Shown here one piece after another: positions 2,774-33,846 of a stretch of 64,000 bases of DNA (positions are counted from its first letter, which is position 1; each line of letters opens with the position of its first letter). Source of the stretch: Candidatus Gottesmanbacteria bacterium RIFCSPHIGHO2_01_FULL_46_14. Its GTDB lineage: Bacteria > Patescibacteriota > Microgenomatia > UBA10105 > UBA927. Position numbers and translations under genes: made by a program. The stretch is taken from contig MFJJ01000010.1 of NCBI GenBank assembly GCA_001780895.1, positions 898 through 64,897 on the forward strand, read 5' to 3'. The notes beneath the pieces were generated by a model. It saw nothing but the letters and a program-made list of their open reading frames with translations. It did not search any database and was not told where the DNA came from.

Positions 2774-3085
2774 ATGTTAATTGATACGAACCAGATTATC
2801 AGTCTTTCCGATCTCCGATTCCGGCTCGGCAGGATGCTTGCCGAAGTGGAAGAAGGGAACGTTCTTCTCGTAGCAAATAAGGGAGATATTAAAGCCGCTT
2901 TTGTTCCCATGACTTTTTTGGAACAGAACGCCGGCAATTCCGAGGAAATGCGTATGAAAGCAAAGGCACTCCAACATGGTTTCGCCGCGGATATGGCAGG
3001 AAAAAAAACTGTTTGGAATAGCACCGTCTTGATCCGAACCCAACGAAACAAACGCGTTGCAAAAATGAACGAACTGATAAAATAG
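2774..3085 (+). CDS. Phd/YefM-like antitoxin
   Basis: 103 aa with an N-terminal pattern (ISLSDLRFRLGRMLAEVEEGNVLLVANKG) typical of Phd/YefM. It sits immediately upstream of a PIN toxin. Confidence 0.5.
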   Translation: MLIDTNQIISLSDLRFRLGRMLAEVEEGNVLLVANKGDIKAAFVPMTFLEQNAGNSEEMRMKAKALQHGFAADMAGKKTVWNSTVLIRTQRNKRVAKMNELIK

Positions 3086-3087
3086 CT

Positions 3088-3495
3088 ATGGAGCACATCG
3101 TGCTTGATGCATCGGTCGTGGTGAAGTGGTTTAAGAAGAAAAATGAGCAACGTACCAGCCAGGCAGACGTATTACTTCAGAATCTTCTTGACGGGACCGT
3201 ACGCGTTTCGATTCCTACGCTTCTTTTTACGGAACTTGTCAGCATTGCGGCCATTGATCGAAGCGTTTCGGAAGAACACTGGCAGGAGGCACTTGTATTT
3301 CTTTTTTCCCTTTCCTGGCATGTGTATCCACCGGACCAATTTTTCGTCAAAGATACGTATCGGTTAGCCAAAGGATTAGGACTGAGCGCGTATGATGCTA
3401 CGTACCTTGCTGTTGCCAAGCGCTGTAGCGCGGTGGTGGTGACGGAGGATAAAGAGCTTCTTGCCAAAGGCGGAAATTTGGTCCGAGCATTGTAG
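3088..3495 (+). CDS. vapC: VapC-type PIN domain toxin
   Basis: Begins LDASVVVKWF, has a conserved Asp (YDATYL), is 135 aa and follows the antitoxin with a 2-bp gap. Confidence 0.6.
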   Translation: MEHIVLDASVVVKWFKKKNEQRTSQADVLLQNLLDGTVRVSIPTLLFTELVSIAAIDRSVSEEHWQEALVFLFSLSWHVYPPDQFFVKDTYRLAKGLGLSAYDATYLAVAKRCSAVVVTEDKELLAKGGNLVRAL

Positions 3496-4245: not shown

Positions 4246-4712
4246 ATACAAAAAACAAAAACATCATTAAGGATATTCTTCAAGCAACCCCCTTGCTGTC
4301 TATGGCTTCTATTACAAAAGACGGGAAGAGTTGGATTTGCACTGCCTTTTATGCATATGATGATAAACTGAAATTGTATTTTCTAACTCCGCCGACGACA
4401 CAACACAGTAAAAATTTAGAGAAAAATGCTTCAGTAGCTATTTCAGTTTTTGATACTCATCAAAACCCTGATGACAAGAAGCGGGGGCTACAGATATTTG
4501 GTGCATGTCATAAAGCAGCAGGTAATGAAATAGAGAAGGGGCTACGCATATATGGCAAACGATTTGTGGATTTCGGAAAGAAAATCCTTTCGCCAGAAGA
4601 TATTGAGAAATCAAAAATGCATTCGCGCTTCTATGTTGTAGTCCCGCAAAAGATAAAAATATTTGATGAATTAGTTTTCGGTGAAGAGATATGGGTAACC
4701 GTGGTTATTTGA
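4242..4712 (+). CDS. pyridoxamine 5'-phosphate oxidase-like FMN-binding split-barrel protein
   Basis: 156 aa. ATGA overlap with the upstream SDR gene. Pattern resembles general stress protein 26 / PNPOx. Confidence 0.4.
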   Translation: MNTKNKNIIKDILQATPLLSMASITKDGKSWICTAFYAYDDKLKLYFLTPPTTQHSKNLEKNASVAISVFDTHQNPDDKKRGLQIFGACHKAAGNEIEKGLRIYGKRFVDFGKKILSPEDIEKSKMHSRFYVVVPQKIKIFDELVFGEEIWVTVVI

Positions 4713-5360: not shown

Positions 5361-6266
5361 ATGATGAGGAGATCTATGCGCAGAAAGATAGTATTTCTGG
5401 TCGTTATTCTTCTTCTGATCGGTGGTGTTATAGGACTAATCCGATTTTTTTCAGGCCGAAGCGGAGCGACCGGTGAGCTTCGTGTGGATAGTCAGCCTAC
5501 AGTGAGTATATTTTTGGATAATAGACATATTGGTCGAAGCCCCTATAAAGACAAAGTTGCCTCCGGTGAATATACCATCAAGCTTACTCCGGAATCTGCG
5601 GTCGATTCTCCGGCAAGTTGGCAGGGACAAATCACTATTGGACCCAATTTATTAACGTATGTAAATGCAACACTTTCCGACTCCGAGCTTACCAGTGCAG
5701 TCGATGTTCTTTGGCTCACTAAAACGTCAGGCAGAGCCTCCGAAGTTTCCGTTACCACCAACCCCGATGGCGCAACACTTCTTATTGATAACGAAACGAA
5801 AGGAGTAACACCCCTTGCTATCTCCGATCTTTCCGCCGGAGACCATACGCTCACGGTTACGTCTCCGGGATTTGCTCCCCGAACGCTCAAAATAAAAGCA
5901 ACGGCCGGGTATCGCCTCATCGTGACGGTCAAACTTGCCCTTTCTGGCGAGCCGATGCCAACGCCGACTGAGGAAGCGACACCTTCGCCAACACTTAAAA
6001 CAACACCTAAAGCGACCCCAACCAAGATAGCAACAAGTTCAGCCACCATGCCTGATCCGACTAAACCCTTCGTGACGATCAAAGACACACCCACCGGATT
6101 TTTGCGCGTCCGGATGGAGCCATCGACGGCCGCTACTGAAGCTGCACAAGTCAAGCCTGGTGAAAAATATCACATCGAGGATGAGCAGAGCGGGTGGTAT
6201 CAGATAAAATACAGCGGAACCAATGAGGGTTGGATCTCCGGCCAGTACGCCACAAAGACTGAGTAA
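5361..6266 (+). CDS. PEGA domain protein with C-terminal SH3b-like domain, membrane anchored
   Basis: N-terminal TM helix. PEGA-like block (TNPDGATLLIDNETKGVTPL...GDHTLTV). Pro/Thr-rich linker. C-terminal GWYQIKY...GWISGQY. Confidence 0.5.
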   Translation: MMRRSMRRKIVFLVVILLLIGGVIGLIRFFSGRSGATGELRVDSQPTVSIFLDNRHIGRSPYKDKVASGEYTIKLTPESAVDSPASWQGQITIGPNLLTYVNATLSDSELTSAVDVLWLTKTSGRASEVSVTTNPDGATLLIDNETKGVTPLAISDLSAGDHTLTVTSPGFAPRTLKIKATAGYRLIVTVKLALSGEPMPTPTEEATPSPTLKTTPKATPTKIATSSATMPDPTKPFVTIKDTPTGFLRVRMEPSTAATEAAQVKPGEKYHIEDEQSGWYQIKYSGTNEGWISGQYATKTE

Positions 6267-6271
6267 TATAT

Positions 6272-6679
6272 ATGGGTTATGAAAATGTGTTGCGCGTGGA
6301 GGGTTTTCTGAAGGATCGTATTGGCTGGTGTAGCGGAAGTGGTTATTCGAGTTTCGGGAGGATGGTTATAGCGTATCGCGACGAAGTACCTCGTGATGAC
6401 GTTTTAACAGGGGAGGAGCTTGAAAAAGCTTGCGCATCTTGTCCAGTGGGGAAAGAGAGAATACCTGGTTTGATTTGCGGTGGGATGAAATATGTCAATC
6501 GGATGCAAAGTCAAATGGTGGCTGAGGTGGATGTTTCAGATAAAGCTCAGTTACCGGAAGGCGCTGAAATATTTTGTGGCTTGGATAACGCGAGGTTACA
6601 ATCGATGAAGGAAGCACCGACCATAGCAGAAGTAGCAGCTCAATATACCGGCGATATGCCTCTCGTGCCGTATAATTGA
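6272..6679 (+). CDS. hypothetical protein
   Basis: 135 aa ORF with no recognisable family. Confidence 0.3.
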   Translation: MGYENVLRVEGFLKDRIGWCSGSGYSSFGRMVIAYRDEVPRDDVLTGEELEKACASCPVGKERIPGLICGGMKYVNRMQSQMVAEVDVSDKAQLPEGAEIFCGLDNARLQSMKEAPTIAEVAAQYTGDMPLVPYN

Positions 6680-6693
6680 TGGAGCGCAAATTG

Positions 6694-6750
6694 CTACCCT
6701 CCTATCCCATACACGACCACCAGCACGCTTCCCACCCAAAGTTCCTTCAG
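6694..6750 (-). pseudogene. duplicated 3'-end fragment of the UbiA-family prenyltransferase gene (encodes ...LWVGSVLVVVYGIGG*)
   Basis: 19 codons ending in TAG. The last 15 aa are identical to the C-terminus of the intact gene at 7384..8322, with about 10 synonymous nt differences. Confidence 0.6.
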
Positions 6751-7112
6751 TTCATCCGACGAAATACGATTTCAAACTCTTTACGAAATCCTTCAAACGT
6801 TATGGTGGCTTTTTGGAAAAGATCCGCTTGTCCGAGGATACAATGGTAGGGCGATATTCCTTCCACGATATTCAATGCGAGGGAAAACGTACTCCCATTT
6901 ATTTCTGCCTCCGCGCGATCAAACCGGTGAGAACGAAATTGTCCGCTTAACGTAAAGCCGATAGATGCCGGAATACTCTCCCATGGTATGCTGAGCGATT
7001 CTGCGATAGTCGTTGAAATCACTGCTCCTGCTGCGCCAGAGTCAACCAATGCAAATGTCGGAAATTCTGTTTGTTGGTGGCGAAATGTCACGGGAACTAT
7101 CGGTGCCAGCAC
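6747..7112 (-). CDS. retropepsin-like aspartic protease (clan AA)
   Basis: LVDSGAAGAVIS active-site motif, hydrophobic-hydrophobic-D-S/T-G-A. Length 121 aa. Confidence 0.55.
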   Translation of the reverse strand: MLAPIVPVTFRHQQTEFPTFALVDSGAAGAVISTTIAESLSIPWESIPASIGFTLSGQFRSHRFDRAEAEINGSTFSLALNIVEGISPYHCILGQADLFQKATITFEGFRKEFEIVFRRMN

Positions 7113-7383
7113 GACTCTGTTCTTGATGCTCGGAAGCGGACTGTACCTGTATTGTATGAAGCCTATCCGATGAAGTTGCCGTACGTTTTTCCTGCCGGAA
7201 AAAAGTATACCTTTTCTTTTTGTTTCTGTACCTTCTCTTTGAGTGTTTTTAGGTTTCTTCCGGCAAACACGACGGAGCGAAAGTCAGACGAAATTGCTAC
7301 CCATCCGGACGTATGGCCCCGCAGTAGTTTGACAAAATTGATCGACTTCTTTTTCATACAACAGTAGTATACTACTTTATGCT

Positions 7384-8322
7384 TCATCCTCCAATGCCGT
7401 AGACCACCACCAGCACACTCCCCACCCAGAGGATGATTGTGGCTAGAAGGGGAAGATCGCTGGTTAAAATTTTCTCCGGTGATTCACCTTTCCCTTCGTA
7501 AATAAGCTGCATATACCGCATGATGCCATAGAGAACAAATGGGATTGTCAACATCATCCATTTTCGCCCGGGAATATCCGGTGCAAAATCTCCGTAGTTG
7601 CGAAAAATAATACCTTCTCCTTGAGGTTGGGCTAAAAACGTAAAAAATGCGTAGGTAATAAACGTCGAGTTTGCAAACATTGCCGTATAGGTATCAAGGA
7701 GTTTTTCTGAGTAATGGGAAAGCGCCATACGCGTATCGCGGGGAACAACGCCTTCGTAGCTATCGATAAGGGTAAGCTCTGCTCTGCGTTTTCCGATAGC
7801 AAGAAACAAGGCAAGCGACAAAGCCGCCAGAGCGAGCCAAATGGAAATGTGAAATCCCGTGGCGGCTTCACCGGCATAGACCCGGAGGATATATGCGGTC
7901 GTAATGGTAAGAATATCAATAATACTGTACTGTTTTAAGATAAGCGTATAGGCATACTCAAGAAACAAAAATGCGACTGCAAAAAGAAAAAACGTCGGAT
8001 TGGTGAGACTTGCAATATAGAGCCCTGTGAAGGCAAAAAGAATCGAAACGAGGACTGCCACAGGGATAGGGAGTTTGCCGCTTGCGACCGGACGAAATTT
8101 TTTGAAGGGATGTTTTCGGTCTCGGGGAGCATCGAGGACGTCGTTAAAGAGATAGTTTGATGAGGAGAGTAAACAAAATGCAATAAACGCCCAGAGATTT
8201 TGTATAAATGGGGCGGTTTGAAACAGTTGCCCAGTAAAGAGAATCGGCGTGAAGATCGCGATATTTTTTAACCACTGTCGGGGTCGTGCGGTTTTGAAAA
8301 TTGCCAAAAGTACTTGAGCCAT
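7384..8322 (-). CDS. UbiA family prenyltransferase, decaprenyl-phosphate phosphoribosyltransferase-like
   Basis: NDVLDAPRDRKHP...RPVASGKL motif (NDxxDxxxD) and multiple TM helices. The start was trimmed to MAQVLL (8322) because the ORF-track N-terminal extension overlaps the upstream gene. Confidence 0.55.
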   Translation of the reverse strand: MAQVLLAIFKTARPRQWLKNIAIFTPILFTGQLFQTAPFIQNLWAFIAFCLLSSSNYLFNDVLDAPRDRKHPFKKFRPVASGKLPIPVAVLVSILFAFTGLYIASLTNPTFFLFAVAFLFLEYAYTLILKQYSIIDILTITTAYILRVYAGEAATGFHISIWLALAALSLALFLAIGKRRAELTLIDSYEGVVPRDTRMALSHYSEKLLDTYTAMFANSTFITYAFFTFLAQPQGEGIIFRNYGDFAPDIPGRKWMMLTIPFVLYGIMRYMQLIYEGKGESPEKILTSDLPLLATIILWVGSVLVVVYGIGG

Positions 8323-9395
8323 AGCAGGAAGCCGCCAATGACCACACCGACAAGAAGTAAGGTAAACACCTTCTGTCGACTCGTGACAGCCAAGGCGATT
8401 GCACCAAGTATAGCCGACACACCCCAGTAAAACAAGGCAACACGGCGTCGGCCCCATCCCAGATCCAAGAGTCGGTGGTGGAGGTGACCACGGTCGGCCC
8501 AAACTGGAGACTTTCCGTGGCCTATTCGTCGTATGAGCGTATAGAGGGCGTCAATTGTTGGAATGCCGAGAACCAGGAGTGCGGTGCCCAGTTTCCCGTA
8601 GGAAAGAATACCCAACAGTCCGAGCATCAGCCCGGCGATCGTTTTGCCGCCGTGTCCCGGCATGATTTTTTGCGGATAGACGTTCCATGGTAAAAAACCC
8701 AGGAACGCTCCGGCGACGATAAAGGCTAAAATCGTGACCGGAAGTTGAGACGGGTCGACGGCACTATAGCGCAGGGACAAGAGTCCCAAAACAATGCCAG
8801 AGACCACGACAAATCCCGGCATCTGTCCGTCGACTCCGGCTGACCAGCCGACGATGTGCATCGTCCACATAAGCCAGACGAATGCAAATAGGTCTGCCCA
8901 GACCAAAATGGAATGTTTTCCAAAAAAATCAAACGAGAGGCGCCAGGTTTGAAGATCGATTACTCCTCCGGTTATTGGATTGGTAACAAACGGAATACCG
9001 GCGCCCACTCCTATCACAACAATAACGGCAAGTATCCCAATACCAAGGCGAATATAGGGGTTTATATCACGTTTGTCGTCTATTATTCCCGTGATCGTCA
9101 GGAGTGCAAGTGCTACGATTATTCCGACCGTGAGTTTTGTAACGGGTAGATAAAGAAGCATTGCGATGGCGATTGCCGCAAATAAGGCAAGCCCTCCCGC
9201 GCGGGGGACTGTTCCGTGATGGGTATGGGCGGGATGATAGCGATTTTTTGGGTTATCGAGGAGTTTCCAGTTGCGGGCAAGATCAATAACCCATGGCGTT
9301 ACCCCAAAACTAATGAGACCTGCAACAATTCCGGCAAGAGCGAAATTCATGAGAGCGTTACGTAACCAGAGAGAGAATTTGTACGATTGAAACAA
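8268..9395 (-). CDS. glycosyltransferase family 4 polyprenyl-phosphate phosphosugar transferase (MraY/WecA family)
   Basis: 375 aa with about 10 TM helices and Asp-rich cytoplasmic loops (GIIDDKRD). Architecture is typical of MraY/WecA. Confidence 0.6.
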   Translation of the reverse strand: MFQSYKFSLWLRNALMNFALAGIVAGLISFGVTPWVIDLARNWKLLDNPKNRYHPAHTHHGTVPRAGGLALFAAIAIAMLLYLPVTKLTVGIIVALALLTITGIIDDKRDINPYIRLGIGILAVIVVIGVGAGIPFVTNPITGGVIDLQTWRLSFDFFGKHSILVWADLFAFVWLMWTMHIVGWSAGVDGQMPGFVVVSGIVLGLLSLRYSAVDPSQLPVTILAFIVAGAFLGFLPWNVYPQKIMPGHGGKTIAGLMLGLLGILSYGKLGTALLVLGIPTIDALYTLIRRIGHGKSPVWADRGHLHHRLLDLGWGRRRVALFYWGVSAILGAIALAVTSRQKVFTLLLVGVVIGGFLLWLKYFWQFSKPHDPDSG

Positions 9396-31098: not shown

Positions 31099-31752
31099 GT
31101 GGATACAGTAATGCCTGTTCAGCCGCCGCCGATGGTACCGCCTCAAAAATCTTCTTCCCACCCTGCTCTTTTTATCGCTGGTACTACCTTGCTCGCTATA
31201 GCCATCAGTTACTTGGGCTACCAAAATTGGCAACTCAAACAGCAAGTCAATCGGTTAGACAAACTTGTCCAAGTCGACAACACCCCTCTGTCTTCACCTA
31301 CCGATTCATCCGACCCCACCGCGAGCCAGGCTCCGAATGGTGACCTGGCCAACTGGAAAACATATACAAATAATGATCTGAGAGTAAACTTCAAACATCC
31401 CAGCGGTTGGGTGATAACTGAAACTAGCATCGGAGTTGTTTTATTGAAAGATCCTGACATACGCATGGTAATTGGAGCTTGTCCGGGATACTCATTTTCC
31501 GTTTCAAAATATGATCCGTATTTAAACTATTCACGATTCGATAAGGTGGTTAAATCAGAACTCGATGGCAAATCTACCGAAACTTGGACAAGTAACGACT
31601 CAAAGTGTAAAGAAAAGGTTATCTTTATTAACGCTTTACCCTCCAATGACCTAAAACCCAAATATATAATTTCATTTATATCTAAAAATTCTGACGGCGA
31701 TAAAATTCTTGACCACATCCTCTCCACCTTCAAGTTTACGGCAAATGAGTAG
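31099..31752 (+). CDS. hypothetical membrane-anchored extracellular protein
   Basis: TM helix followed by WKTYTNNDLRVNFKHPSGW, a paralogue of the 28885 gene product. Confidence 0.35.
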   Translation: MDTVMPVQPPPMVPPQKSSSHPALFIAGTTLLAIAISYLGYQNWQLKQQVNRLDKLVQVDNTPLSSPTDSSDPTASQAPNGDLANWKTYTNNDLRVNFKHPSGWVITETSIGVVLLKDPDIRMVIGACPGYSFSVSKYDPYLNYSRFDKVVKSELDGKSTETWTSNDSKCKEKVIFINALPSNDLKPKYIISFISKNSDGDKILDHILSTFKFTANE

Positions 31753-31771
31753 GGTAATCGAGTTCTTCTTC

Positions 31772-32149
31772 ATGGTATACTACCCCCGTATGGGTATAAC
31801 AACAATTTCAGCAACTATTACAAGCCTCGAGAATCCGAAAAATAAAGTCAGCGGAAAGTTTATGGTGGATACTGGTGCAGCATATACAGTGCTTCCACAG
31901 GCGCTTGTTGACAAACTACACCTGAAGCCGGTCAAAACGCAAGAATTTACCTTGGCAGACGGCACAACCGTTGCCCGAAGACTTGGTCATGCAATGGTTG
32001 AGATTGATGGCGACAGAGCTCCGTCTATAGTCGTACTTGGAGAAAGAGATGATTCACCTCTTATCGGAGTAGTGACGCTTGAAAATATGGGACTTATGGT
32101 TGATCCCTTTAAAAGGAAACTTCGCCCCATGAGACTCATGTTGGCCTAA
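31772..32149 (+). CDS. retropepsin-like aspartic protease (second copy)
   Basis: FMVDTGAAYTVL active-site motif. ATG at 31772 or 31790. The ORF-track upstream extension overlaps the previous gene. Confidence 0.5.
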   Translation: MVYYPRMGITTISATITSLENPKNKVSGKFMVDTGAAYTVLPQALVDKLHLKPVKTQEFTLADGTTVARRLGHAMVEIDGDRAPSIVVLGERDDSPLIGVVTLENMGLMVDPFKRKLRPMRLMLA

Positions 32150-32157
32150 ATGGTACG

Positions 32158-32958
32158 TTACCCAGCAACAGGGTAATACCGTGGTGTTCCTCCAAATCCT
32201 TCTTTAAATTTCGTAAACCCTTTCCATTCATGGAACTGTTTAGGGTTTCGTTCATCCCAGACGCCGACAAAGTCAAACTGTTTCATTCCCCGTTTTTTTG
32301 ATAGTTTCAATGCCTCCCAAACGAGAAGAGTCGGAGTGAATAATTTTTTTCCTTGGTGGGTGGCTCCTGCGATCCAATAATAGGAGGTATCCTCCCAAAA
32401 AATGAGAAGTACACCACCATGTTGTGCAAGAAGAATACTTGCATGTTTCTGGGAAAATATTGACCAGAGATCTATTATTCCATAGGTAGTAATACTGCCA
32501 AAAAGCCCGGCTGATTTAGATTTAATTGCAATAAGTTCGTTGATGTTTGCAGATTCTCTTACAATCACCCCATGTTTTTCTGCCCGACGAACAGCCCGTC
32601 GTTTTGCTTCGGAAAATCTGTTAAATATTTCATCTTCGGTAGCTGTTAGATCAACAAGAATAGTTTTTGTCGGCAAAAATGGATTTCCGCCAACGGACGG
32701 AATTTTTTTCCTCCACTCGTCAAACGCCGTCTGGGAAACAACCGCGTCCGGTTCAACGGTAATCCGGCGGATTCGTTTTTCGCGCAATAGTTTATTGAGA
32801 GTATCGGGAGATGGAAGTCTGGTTGGCCGCTGTAGTTTTGCCAATGCCCCATATATGGGAAAGTAGCGGAAGATAATTGTCGATCCGTCTATCTCACTCG
32901 TGTGCCAGCCGAGTTTTTCGATATATGAAATATACAGTGATGATTGTTGCAGCTCCAT
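32158..32958 (-). CDS. FemAB family peptidoglycan peptidyl/aminoacyl transferase
   Basis: 266 aa with the FemAB C-terminal block (HEWKGFTKFKEGFGG). Tandem with a paralogue. Confidence 0.55.
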   Translation of the reverse strand: MELQQSSLYISYIEKLGWHTSEIDGSTIIFRYFPIYGALAKLQRPTRLPSPDTLNKLLREKRIRRITVEPDAVVSQTAFDEWRKKIPSVGGNPFLPTKTILVDLTATEDEIFNRFSEAKRRAVRRAEKHGVIVRESANINELIAIKSKSAGLFGSITTYGIIDLWSIFSQKHASILLAQHGGVLLIFWEDTSYYWIAGATHQGKKLFTPTLLVWEALKLSKKRGMKQFDFVGVWDERNPKQFHEWKGFTKFKEGFGGTPRYYPVAG

Positions 32959-33846
32959 TTATCGCAGCATTTTCAAATATTTCCATCGAATCGTATCGGC
33001 GACCGTATAGATTTTGTAGAGAGCGGGTTTAAGGATGAGGTCATAGGATCCGACAAATTCAATCAAATTTGGATTGAAACCTTGTTTAAATCGATGAAAT
33101 CCATACCAAGGATCATTGGGATCGGGGTCGGGACCGAGTGCACCCCATAGATCAAATTTTTTATATCCTTCCGATTTTCCCCATCGGGCTATTTCCCAAA
33201 GCATAAGGTTTGGCGCCATGACTTCCCGATGATCTCTTGATGAGGCACCATAGGGGTAATACATCGTATCCTTCCAGCAAAAAATAATCCACGAGGCAAG
33301 AATTTGATTTCTATACGTGGCCGTAAACAGTCGGGCGATATCGGGATGAAAATGTTGCCACATTTGCCGGTAATACAAATCGTTGTGCGCATAAAAGTGC
33401 TGGCGTTTAAGCGTTTCATTATTTAAACGCAGAAATGGTCCAAGATTTTCTTCTTCGTTGATCGTTACTTTGTGTTTTTGGGCGACGCGAATGTTGTAGC
33501 GCGTTTTGGGGTGCATGGCTTTTAGTAGTTCTTCTTCAGACTTTGTGAGATCTAAGACAAATGTGTATCTGGAAAACAACGGATGGTGGGAGTGTGGTAG
33601 CAGCTGATCGCCAGAAGTGACATTGGGTTCGATTTGAATACAGAGTGCATTTTTTTCGTTCCCCAATGCTTTTAGTTTTTCTATCATCTCTTTTGTTACG
33701 CTTGGTCCTTTGGGAAAATAGCCGATGGTCCATGGAGTGAGAGGAATTTTGTGGAATGTCAGTTGCCAGTTGCCAATGCGGGCCACGTCGATGCCCATGG
33801 AGCGACGAAATGCTCCCCATGCCGGTGATTGAAGTGGGTGTTGCAT
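32959..33846 (-). CDS. FemAB family peptidoglycan peptidyl/aminoacyl transferase (paralogue)
   Basis: 295 aa with the matching C-terminal block (YGFHRFKQGFNPNL) and a GNAT-like fold pattern. Confidence 0.55.
   Translation of the reverse strand: MQHPLQSPAWGAFRRSMGIDVARIGNWQLTFHKIPLTPWTIGYFPKGPSVTKEMIEKLKALGNEKNALCIQIEPNVTSGDQLLPHSHHPLFSRYTFVLDLTKSEEELLKAMHPKTRYNIRVAQKHKVTINEEENLGPFLRLNNETLKRQHFYAHNDLYYRQMWQHFHPDIARLFTATYRNQILASWIIFCWKDTMYYPYGASSRDHREVMAPNLMLWEIARWGKSEGYKKFDLWGALGPDPDPNDPWYGFHRFKQGFNPNLIEFVGSYDLILKPALYKIYTVADTIRWKYLKMLR

Follow-up and report, generated by a model that had tools for sequence, protein, structure and literature searches.

Do two small retropepsin-like aspartic protease genes that lie in one stretch of a bacterial genome represent two copies of a single mobile unit? 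This question is raised by a 64,000-nucleotide (nt) stretch of contig MFJJ01000010.1 from Candidatus Gottesmanbacteria, which belongs to the Microgenomates in the candidate phyla radiation (CPR); the whole stretch is referred to here as the window. The initial annotation reported two proteins of about 120 amino acids with the retropepsin D-S/T-G-A signature and no other domain, and proposed that they had been spread by a small mobile unit. We call the protease at 6747–7112 (minus strand) copy 1 and that at 31772–32149 (plus strand) copy 2. The signatures are indeed present, as LVDSGAAGAV and FMVDTGAAYTV, and neither protein showed any further domain. The idea of a mobile unit holds up for copy 1, which is carried on a small, horizontally moving unit, but the two proteases are not copies of one unit. 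Our preferred interpretation, to which we assign a probability of roughly 60%, is that copy 1 is the distal gene of a mobile cassette of ~650 nt that was inserted behind a UbiA gene and that acts as a toxin-antitoxin-like or candidate anti-phage module.

A two-gene cassette behind the UbiA gene

Copy 1 had been described as a stand-alone gene, a description that fits copy 2 only. With tblastn, 22 independent copy 1 loci were examined (L001, L002, L005–L016 and L018–L024; L numbers denote fetched genomic loci), and in all 22 a small gene lies immediately 5' of the protease gene, with a gap of −17 to +21 nt between the two. Because of this obligate upstream partner, copy 1 is not a stand-alone gene but the second gene of a conserved two-gene cassette. 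In the window the partner gene, which is DUF5678-like, occupies 7163–7357 (minus strand) and encodes 64 amino acids plus the stop codon; a longer reading of the same open reading frame, starting at 7385–7387 (minus strand), would give 74 amino acids and overlap the UbiA stop codon (ATGA). A TATACT box resembling a −10 element (7366–7371, minus strand) stands 8 nt before the ATG of the small gene, and a −35-like hexamer, TTGGAG (7389–7394, minus strand), is found in the end of the UbiA gene at a spacing of 17 nt. In nearly all loci a TATAAT or TATACT box of this type, often with an upstream TG, ends 7–9 nt before the ATG of the small gene. This position suggests that the cassette has its own promoter and that its transcript is leaderless or has a short leader. 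A scan of positions 6200–7700 for consensus promoters and terminators returned nothing relevant and did not call the box at 7366–7371.

The partner proteins are small and divergent. DUF5678 (PF18929; gathering score 23.2 bits) was matched by 13 of the 22 at E-values of up to 10, the best being 1.7e-6, and distant relatives scored 16–22.7 bits; the window protein itself had no match to this family. An exhaustive profile search yielded 93 representative clusters of partner relatives, mostly of ~50–90 amino acids, across which only W19, L12 and Y59 are broadly conserved. There was no significant structural neighbour of the partner fold in the PDB, no meaningful sequence match to solved structures, and no match of the partner proteins to antitoxin domains of the helix-turn-helix (HTH), ribbon-helix-helix or AbrB types. 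We considered the aromatic-Pro (Phe-Pro) step in a YFFPAG motif of the partner as a general retropepsin cleavage site and rejected it, the motif being confined to a narrow subfamily.

The gene upstream of the cassette encodes a UbiA-family prenyltransferase of 312 amino acids (7384–8322, minus strand; PF01040 on the identical gene in L027). The duplication footprint that had been reported at copy 1 is a 44-nt direct repeat (6698–6741 and 7388–7431, both read on the minus strand) with 82% identity. The left repeat, 7388–7431, contains the functional last 15 codons of UbiA, LWVGSVLVVVYGIGG, with the stop codon TGA at 7384–7386. The right repeat, 6698–6741, is a displaced second version of these 15 codons with the stop codon TAG at 6694–6696; it begins 5 nt past the protease stop, and its frame differs from that of the protease. 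Both versions encode the same peptide. Apart from TGA versus TAG, they differ at nine sense codons, and all nine differences are at third positions and are synonymous, while 28% of random single changes would be synonymous (P ~1e-5 for nine of nine). This pattern argues that both UbiA tails must have evolved as working gene ends, and hence come from two lineages. Simple target-site duplication followed by decay was rejected, as it would not leave purely synonymous differences between the tails.

We compared this site with 80 fetched loci that carry UbiA relatives at 65–89% amino acid identity. None of the 80 has the cassette at the UbiA site. On every contig that extends far enough, GT4 is followed by UbiA and then by a convergent PEGA gene, the distance between UbiA and PEGA is usually within ~30 nt, and no UbiA-tail repeats were found in relatives with longer gaps. 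Viewed against these sites, the cassette is an insertion right after the UbiA stop codon. Known classes of small mobile element did not fit the insertion. We found no inverted repeats spanning the cassette ends, and an insertion sequence or a miniature inverted-repeat transposable element was rejected given the lack of terminal inverted repeats and the imperfect direct repeats of 31–57 nt. An integron gene cassette was likewise rejected, since the window repeat is coding sequence with no hairpin evident by inspection and the neighbourhood holds no integrase. The window repeats enclose the two cassette genes alone, and no recombinase was seen within 4 kb in L027. A tRNA or tmRNA gene as insertion target was also dismissed, there being none in the window.

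The same site is occupied in a diverged genome (GCA_040960315.1; L128–L130), which allowed the history of the cassette to be compared with that of its flanks. At four-fold degenerate sites, the window and L128 are identical at 36% of 146 sites in GT4, 37% of 126 sites in UbiA and 29% of 103 sites in PEGA, versus 60% of 25 sites in the small gene and 61% of 59 sites in the protease gene (cassette versus flanks, Fisher p = 1.4e-5). By this measure of synonymous-site identity, the cassettes of the two genomes share a more recent ancestor than do their flanks and have been exchanged into the same site. Nucleotide identity between the two climbs from 60–75% to 80–88% from ~7590 onwards. A candidate degenerate UbiA-tail remnant after the cassette in L128 was not significant.

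Recombination at this site is also visible among near-identical strains, represented by ten strain-variant contigs of the window lineage (L027–L036). An open reading frame of 135 amino acids and unknown function (6272–6679, plus strand), which is not part of the cassette, is present in some of these strains and absent from others. Two contigs (L029 and L035) are without window positions 6274–6717, which hold this reading frame, and carry a third synonymous UbiA-tail remnant, two codons shorter, that directly abuts the PEGA stop; the strain breakpoint falls inside the remnant. In another locus (L048) a homologue of the 135-residue reading frame directly follows UbiA. Judging by this breakpoint and by the position of the homologue in L048, the short UbiA gene-end remnant behaves as a recombination substrate, and the 135-residue reading frame marks the same recombination hot spot. 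With regard to the target gene itself, the mechanically called UbiA reading frame (7384–8502, minus strand) runs 60 codons upstream of the probable start at 8322 and overlaps GT4 (8268–9395, minus strand); the real UbiA and GT4 genes overlap by ~50 nt, as they do in relatives.

Gene-end repeats at other cassette loci

We found flanking repeats of the same kind at other cassette loci, where they are derived from the target, imperfect and different from locus to locus. Repeats of 30–34 nt from the EF-G C-terminus (..STFTGRVE*) enclose the cassette only in L012, L013 and L014, as does a 38-nt repeat from a tRNA-synthetase-like gene (Anticodon_2 domain) in L024, with similarity running on to the stop. 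Larger segments are bounded by a 45-nt repeat of the DnaJ C-terminus in L011 (3961–4005 and 6409–6453; cassette plus two metabolic-looking genes, 2.4 kb) and by a 57-nt repeat of the NusG C-terminus in L018 (2626–2682 and 5279–5335; cassette plus two genes, 2.6 kb). The repeats of 32 and 52 nt in L002 and L015 are terminator hairpins and enclose the cassette only; an attC reading of these hairpin-type repeats was rejected, as they look like terminators. In L009 and L023 the repeats of 33 and 43 nt enclose the cassette with ~0.3–1 kb of extra DNA, and the upstream copy has no assigned long reading frame. FtsZ (L010) and NusG (L016) lie directly upstream of further cassettes, with no detectable repeat.

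Synonymous differences between the two repeat versions recur at these loci, with four of five in L014, four of five in L011 and four of four in L013. To set the repeats against background, segments of matching length were taken from other parts of these loci, and their 250-nt flanks served as controls (n = 340). A repeat score of at least 20 was reached by 5/20 cassette loci and by 0/340 control segments (p = 3e-7), and the controls never reached even 15. A protein-level search for decayed gene-end remnants in the loci that have no DNA repeats gave no new cases. Neither within the repeat-bounded segments nor close to them did we see a recombinase, a transposase or a terminal inverted repeat, the integrase and recombinase check of the larger L011 and L018 segments consisting of open reading frames read by eye. 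The extra genes in these two segments encode HAD-type hydrolase, epimerase-like and aminopeptidase-like proteins; the presence of such ordinary-looking genes inside the repeats implies that duplication of gene ends is a footprint not tied to the protease cassette.

The cassette is also found on contigs assigned to distant hosts, namely a contig of a metagenome-assembled genome (MAG) of Nitrososphaeraceae (L007), Dictyobacter formicarum (P0079) and MAGs labelled Gammaproteobacteria (L009, L012, L014, L019, L020 and L024). Either the cassette has spread widely, by horizontal transfer, among these very different phyla, or the contigs are mis-binned or mislabelled. Beside the cassette in L001, two TspO/MBR-like reading frames (5469–5960 and 7137–7631, both minus strand) flank a Gp49/HTH toxin-antitoxin pair, and may be another duplication around an inserted module.

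Two protease families

The copy 1 reading frame at 6747–7112 encodes 121 amino acids from a GTG (7110–7112), the first canonical start, and forms the 3' 121 codons of a longer coding sequence of 136 codons (6747–7157, minus strand; stop codon at 6747–6749). A hypothetical protein of Candidatus Gottesmanbacteria bacterium RIFCSPHIGHO2_01_FULL_4x matches copy 1 at 100% identity. Homologues of copy 1 are mostly 136 amino acids long, extend 15 residues further at the N-terminus and start MRYPYSQLPSITSREV. The 15 additional codons are in frame and conserved in the window, IQYRYSPLPSIKNRV, and in L128, the nearest relative, the corresponding sequence is MQYRYSPLPSIKTRV, with ATG at the start position. 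In alignment with the homologues and L128, the window has ATA where the family has its ATG (7155–7157, minus strand), as do all the strain-variant contigs. With ATG in L128, this indicates that the window lineage carries a point mutation in the start codon, and the protease effector in this genome is probably attenuated or N-terminally truncated.

In an alignment of 45 relatives of copy 1, D39 and G41 of the catalytic D-S-G-A (D39–A42 of the 136-residue form; 7032–7043, minus strand) are invariant, and S40 and A42 are kept in at least 90%. The same level of conservation applies to I107-L108-G109, the retropepsin-type hydrophobic-hydrophobic-Gly motif within CILGQxDLF (I-L-G at 6831–6839, minus strand). 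The copy 1 protein of the window scores 24.4 bits against PF13975 and 21.0 bits against PF13650, below the Pfam gathering scores of 28.2 and 24.3 bits, and 13.8 bits against NCBIfam TIGR03698 (clan_AA_DTGF), under the curated cut-off of 57.35 bits. For many of its homologues, precomputed matches to PF13975 or PF13650 exist. The family profile matches DDI1 retropepsin domains in the PDB at E ~0.01. An AlphaFold2 model of copy 1, built on a 12-sequence family alignment, reached a predicted local distance difference test (pLDDT) value of 92.9, and its top Foldseek matches in the PDB were HIV-1 and HIV-2 protease (probability 1.00, template-modelling score ~0.72 on the target). Taken together, the conserved motifs, the DDI1 matches and the similarity of the model to HIV proteases confirm, at the level of predicted structure, a single-lobe retropepsin fold for copy 1.

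Copy 2 is recognised directly by Pfam, exceeding the gathering scores of PF13975 (42.1 bits) and PF13650 (34.6 bits) that copy 1 does not reach, and at 55.4 bits it falls just under the TIGR03698 cut-off. FMVDTGAAYTV lies in a reading frame at 31709–32149 (plus strand), in which 31772 is an in-frame ATG. Homologues are 119 amino acids long and begin MGITTI and, with a TGgTATACT box of the −10 type at 31773–31781 (plus strand), they place the likely start at 31790 rather than 31772. Copy 2 is on this basis a stand-alone clan AA aspartic protease of 119 amino acids (31790–32149, plus strand), with its D-T-G-A at 31868–31879; D27, G29 and A30 are invariant among the 30 members of its family alignment. 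More than 220 cluster-level homologues were found, several named 'clan AA aspartic protease' by NCBI and with sources that include Gottesmanbacteria, Chisholmbacteria, Woesebacteria and Beckwithbacteria. Contrary to the initial annotation, single-domain retropepsins are not uncommon in bacteria, and this applies to both families.

In the eight genomic contexts examined for relatives of copy 2, a small partner gene is always lacking, and no two neighbourhoods are alike. In the window, a FemAB pair (32158–33846, minus strand) abuts copy 2, as had been noted. A homologue in L042 again has FemAB (PF02388, adjoining) together with UvrD as neighbours, in rearranged form, and another relative lies behind a PBP1A-type gene and the gene of a membrane protein with weak similarity to window 31099–31752. 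No flanking repeat was found around copy 2 in the window. In some other genomes, however, relatives of copy 2 lie inside segments bounded by repeats: in L127 these are 125-nt repeats (2968–3092 and 4271–4396) that duplicate the 3' end of a cation-efflux gene, and in L124 a 35-nt repeat that occurs three times (821–855, 1808–1842 and 2293–2327). Boxes of the TGnTATAAT type, 7–9 nt before the ATG, were seen in both protease families (window; L001–L024, L037–L043 and L124–L127), suggesting that leaderless or very short-leader transcripts are common in these genomes.

Function of the cassette and comparison with known systems

What might such a cassette do? The PADLOC model PDC-M52B is matched by 42 of the 45 copy 1 family members (positions 6–135 of 139; best E 1.4e-7), the window protein among them at E 1.9e-4; PDC stands for 'phage defence candidate', and no paper on PDC-M52 was found. 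One cassette locus lies among a type IIG-like methylase/restriction gene, an OLD-family nuclease, DUF2130 and Gp49/HTH genes. The protease gene has decayed twice, by start loss in the window and by C-terminal truncation in Dictyobacter, and the partner gene of the window is intact. The operon layout, the mobility, this one locus that resembles a defence island, the PDC-M52B match and the protease decay fit a toxin-antitoxin-like or defence module, which we infer to be the most likely function. Reports of small retropepsins beside type III CRISPR loci in Sulfolobales (PMC3973734) are in keeping with it. About 3 kb from the cassette, a PIN-domain gene of 135 amino acids (3088–3495, plus strand; PF01850 by the annotation of the identical contig L027) adjoins a small gene, and the two are likely a VapBC-type toxin-antitoxin pair.

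We envisage the cassette as a unit made up of its own −10 box, the 64-residue DUF5678-like protein and the 136-residue, homodimer-type retropepsin-like protease, which would move horizontally within Microgenomates and beyond. The cytoplasmic protease would be the effector, the small co-translated partner would restrain it as a bound inhibitor or pseudosubstrate, and if the partner were lost, the protease would be released to cut its targets in the cell. Insertion immediately after the UbiA stop would have left the two diverged, synonymous 15-codon gene ends as flanking repeats. The existing structure may then have spread between relatives by a double crossover, with one exchange located in the conserved gene and a second within the short remnant, which would explain why the synonymous differences look like those between donor and recipient. 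Copy 2 is an unrelated, partner-less clan AA member outside the cassette and would have a promoter of its own.

Several observations weigh against this interpretation. The partner matches DUF5678 at or under the gathering score and has no known antitoxin fold, and the YFFPAG motif that had hinted at a cleavable partner tail is limited to a narrow subfamily. None of the 22 partner proteins matches PDC-M52A, even at E up to 10, nor do they match any other PADLOC model. Most cassette insertion sites adjoin housekeeping genes rather than defence islands, flanking repeats are missing from about half of the cassette loci, neither a recombinase nor terminal inverted repeats nor an attC-like site could be found with the cassettes, and the cassette was not found in phage, viral-contig or plasmid collections.

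These points leave room for other explanations. The pair may instead be a processing system, in which the partner serves the protease as its dedicated substrate, its precursor, its chaperone or its adaptor, and the cassette is accessory cargo shuffled by general recombination; we consider this unlikely. That copy 1 of the window genome is a decaying pseudogene with no present function seems more doubtful still: the change of the family ATG to ATA speaks for it, as the first canonical start drops 15 residues that include a predicted N-terminal beta-strand (residues 2–4), but all 136 codons are open with no frameshift or stop, amino acid identity is 90% to L128 and 72–74% to L001, the sequence is identical in the ten strain-variant contigs, and the partner gene is intact. 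It is quite improbable, in our estimation, that a larger, integrase-borne element with site specificity for gene 3' ends once inserted and that the cassette is what survives of it, with the repeats as attL and attR. Imperfect repeats of 31–57 nt from the 3' ends of conserved genes are a classic tyrosine-integrase signature, and those of L011 and L018 enclose 2.4–2.6 kb with extra genes. Yet no integrase was seen in any repeat-bounded segment, nor within 4 kb in the window lineage, and the targets comprise no fewer than five different genes or sites. Furthermore, at several independent loci the cassette is tightly enclosed by the repeats, which lie 0–5 nt past the protease stop and 30–60 nt before the small gene, an arrangement that random decay of a larger element would not yield repeatedly.

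The explanation proposed at the outset, under which both proteases would be copies of a single small mobile unit, fares worst of all. Both have D-S/T-G-A, sizes of ~120–136 amino acids, variable contexts and a similar leaderless-type −10 box. Nonetheless, they share 27% identity over 78 amino acids by BLASTP, and their family profiles align (hhalign) over 54 columns around the catalytic loop only, with a probability of 42%. The partner gene accompanies copy 1 only, and no repeat flanks copy 2 in the window. Low identity, an alignment limited to the catalytic loop and different architectures place copies 1 and 2, as judged from their sequences, in unrelated families rather than in one unit; at the level of a recent common origin, the two-copy proposal is refuted by these comparisons.

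Returning to a mobile toxin-antitoxin-like or defence cassette, our findings bear on both its cargo and its movement. Retropepsin-like proteases are known in bacteria, yet very few have an assigned role, and a conserved mobile pairing gives the retropepsin and DUF5678-like families a testable context, that of an effector and its restrainer, possibly anti-phage. The more interesting point is the footprint, with synonymous gene-end duplicates around a 650-nt unit that has no recombinase, uses several targets and recurs at one shared position in diverged genomes. CPR bacteria have small genomes in which few mobile elements have been recognised, and the footprint may reveal how cassettes of genes travel in these bacteria. 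A more speculative generalisation, which we put forward tentatively as it is probably not correct as a whole, is that Microgenomates harbour integrase-less mini-cassettes that insert precisely behind the stops of conserved housekeeping genes, duplicating the last 10–20 codons, and that the purely synonymous differences between the two copies imply one donor-derived and one recipient-derived gene end. If true, this would be a mode of cassette mobility in which short conserved ends of genes serve as portable stretches of homology or as att sites; the driving force could be a recombinase acting in trans, or short-homology recombination following the uptake of DNA, and the retropepsin and DUF5678 pair would be protease-based addiction or defence cargo riding along.

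How does the cassette compare with known systems? In the literature searched we found no description of a retropepsin and DUF5678-like pair. The PDC-M52 candidate is similar in that its component B is matched by the copy 1 family and its name implies a two-component layout; it differs in that the partner has no PDC-M52A match, the scores are modest and the candidate itself is unvalidated. Type II toxin-antitoxin systems resemble the cassette in having a small first gene tightly coupled to or overlapping a larger one, in having their own promoter, and in their mobility and variable contexts, and here too decay strikes the putative toxin gene, that of the protease. However, the cassette partner shows no DNA-binding antitoxin fold, and the putative effector is an aspartic protease, a type of effector that goes unmentioned in the main text of a 2009 comparative survey of toxin-antitoxin systems (PMC2701414).

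With respect to the protease, copy 1 shares its single-lobe fold and hydrophobic-hydrophobic-Gly motif with the RVP domain of DDI1 and with APRc, RimB and the Rlo enzymes, and both copies share with them D-S/T-G-A and a size of ~100–140 amino acids. APRc is membrane-anchored. The respective papers describe Pseudomonas RimB as part of the RimABK complex (PMC11957791) and the Rlo enzymes as secreted (PMC12239564); Rickettsia APRc (PMC4140852) is a further bacterial retropepsin-like protease in the literature. In contrast to APRc, RimB and Rlo, the window proteases are small and have no second domain, and copy 1 has a dedicated DUF5678-like partner, none having been found described for the others. 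By size and context, the cassette protease can also be likened to the small retropepsin-domain proteins of the Saci_1895 type (~100 amino acids), which are stand-alone domains in a conflict-system neighbourhood and adjoin type III CRISPR-Cas loci in Sulfolobales (PMC3973734); the gene tables inspected for the surroundings of the cassette list no CRISPR-cas genes.

As for the insertion, the cassette resembles integrative elements of gene 3' ends in its position behind UbiA, EF-G, DnaJ, NusG and a tRNA-synthetase-like gene, and in its imperfect repeats of 31–57 nt that restore the gene end. Such elements, which target the 3' ends of conserved genes, include the cis-mobilisable elements of streptococci, Tn7 at glmS and casposons at the EF-2 gene. 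The cassette differs from them in being ~650 nt long without recombinase, transposase or terminal inverted repeats, in having targets that vary by lineage, and in carrying repeats that differ synonymously, as if they came from two host lineages.

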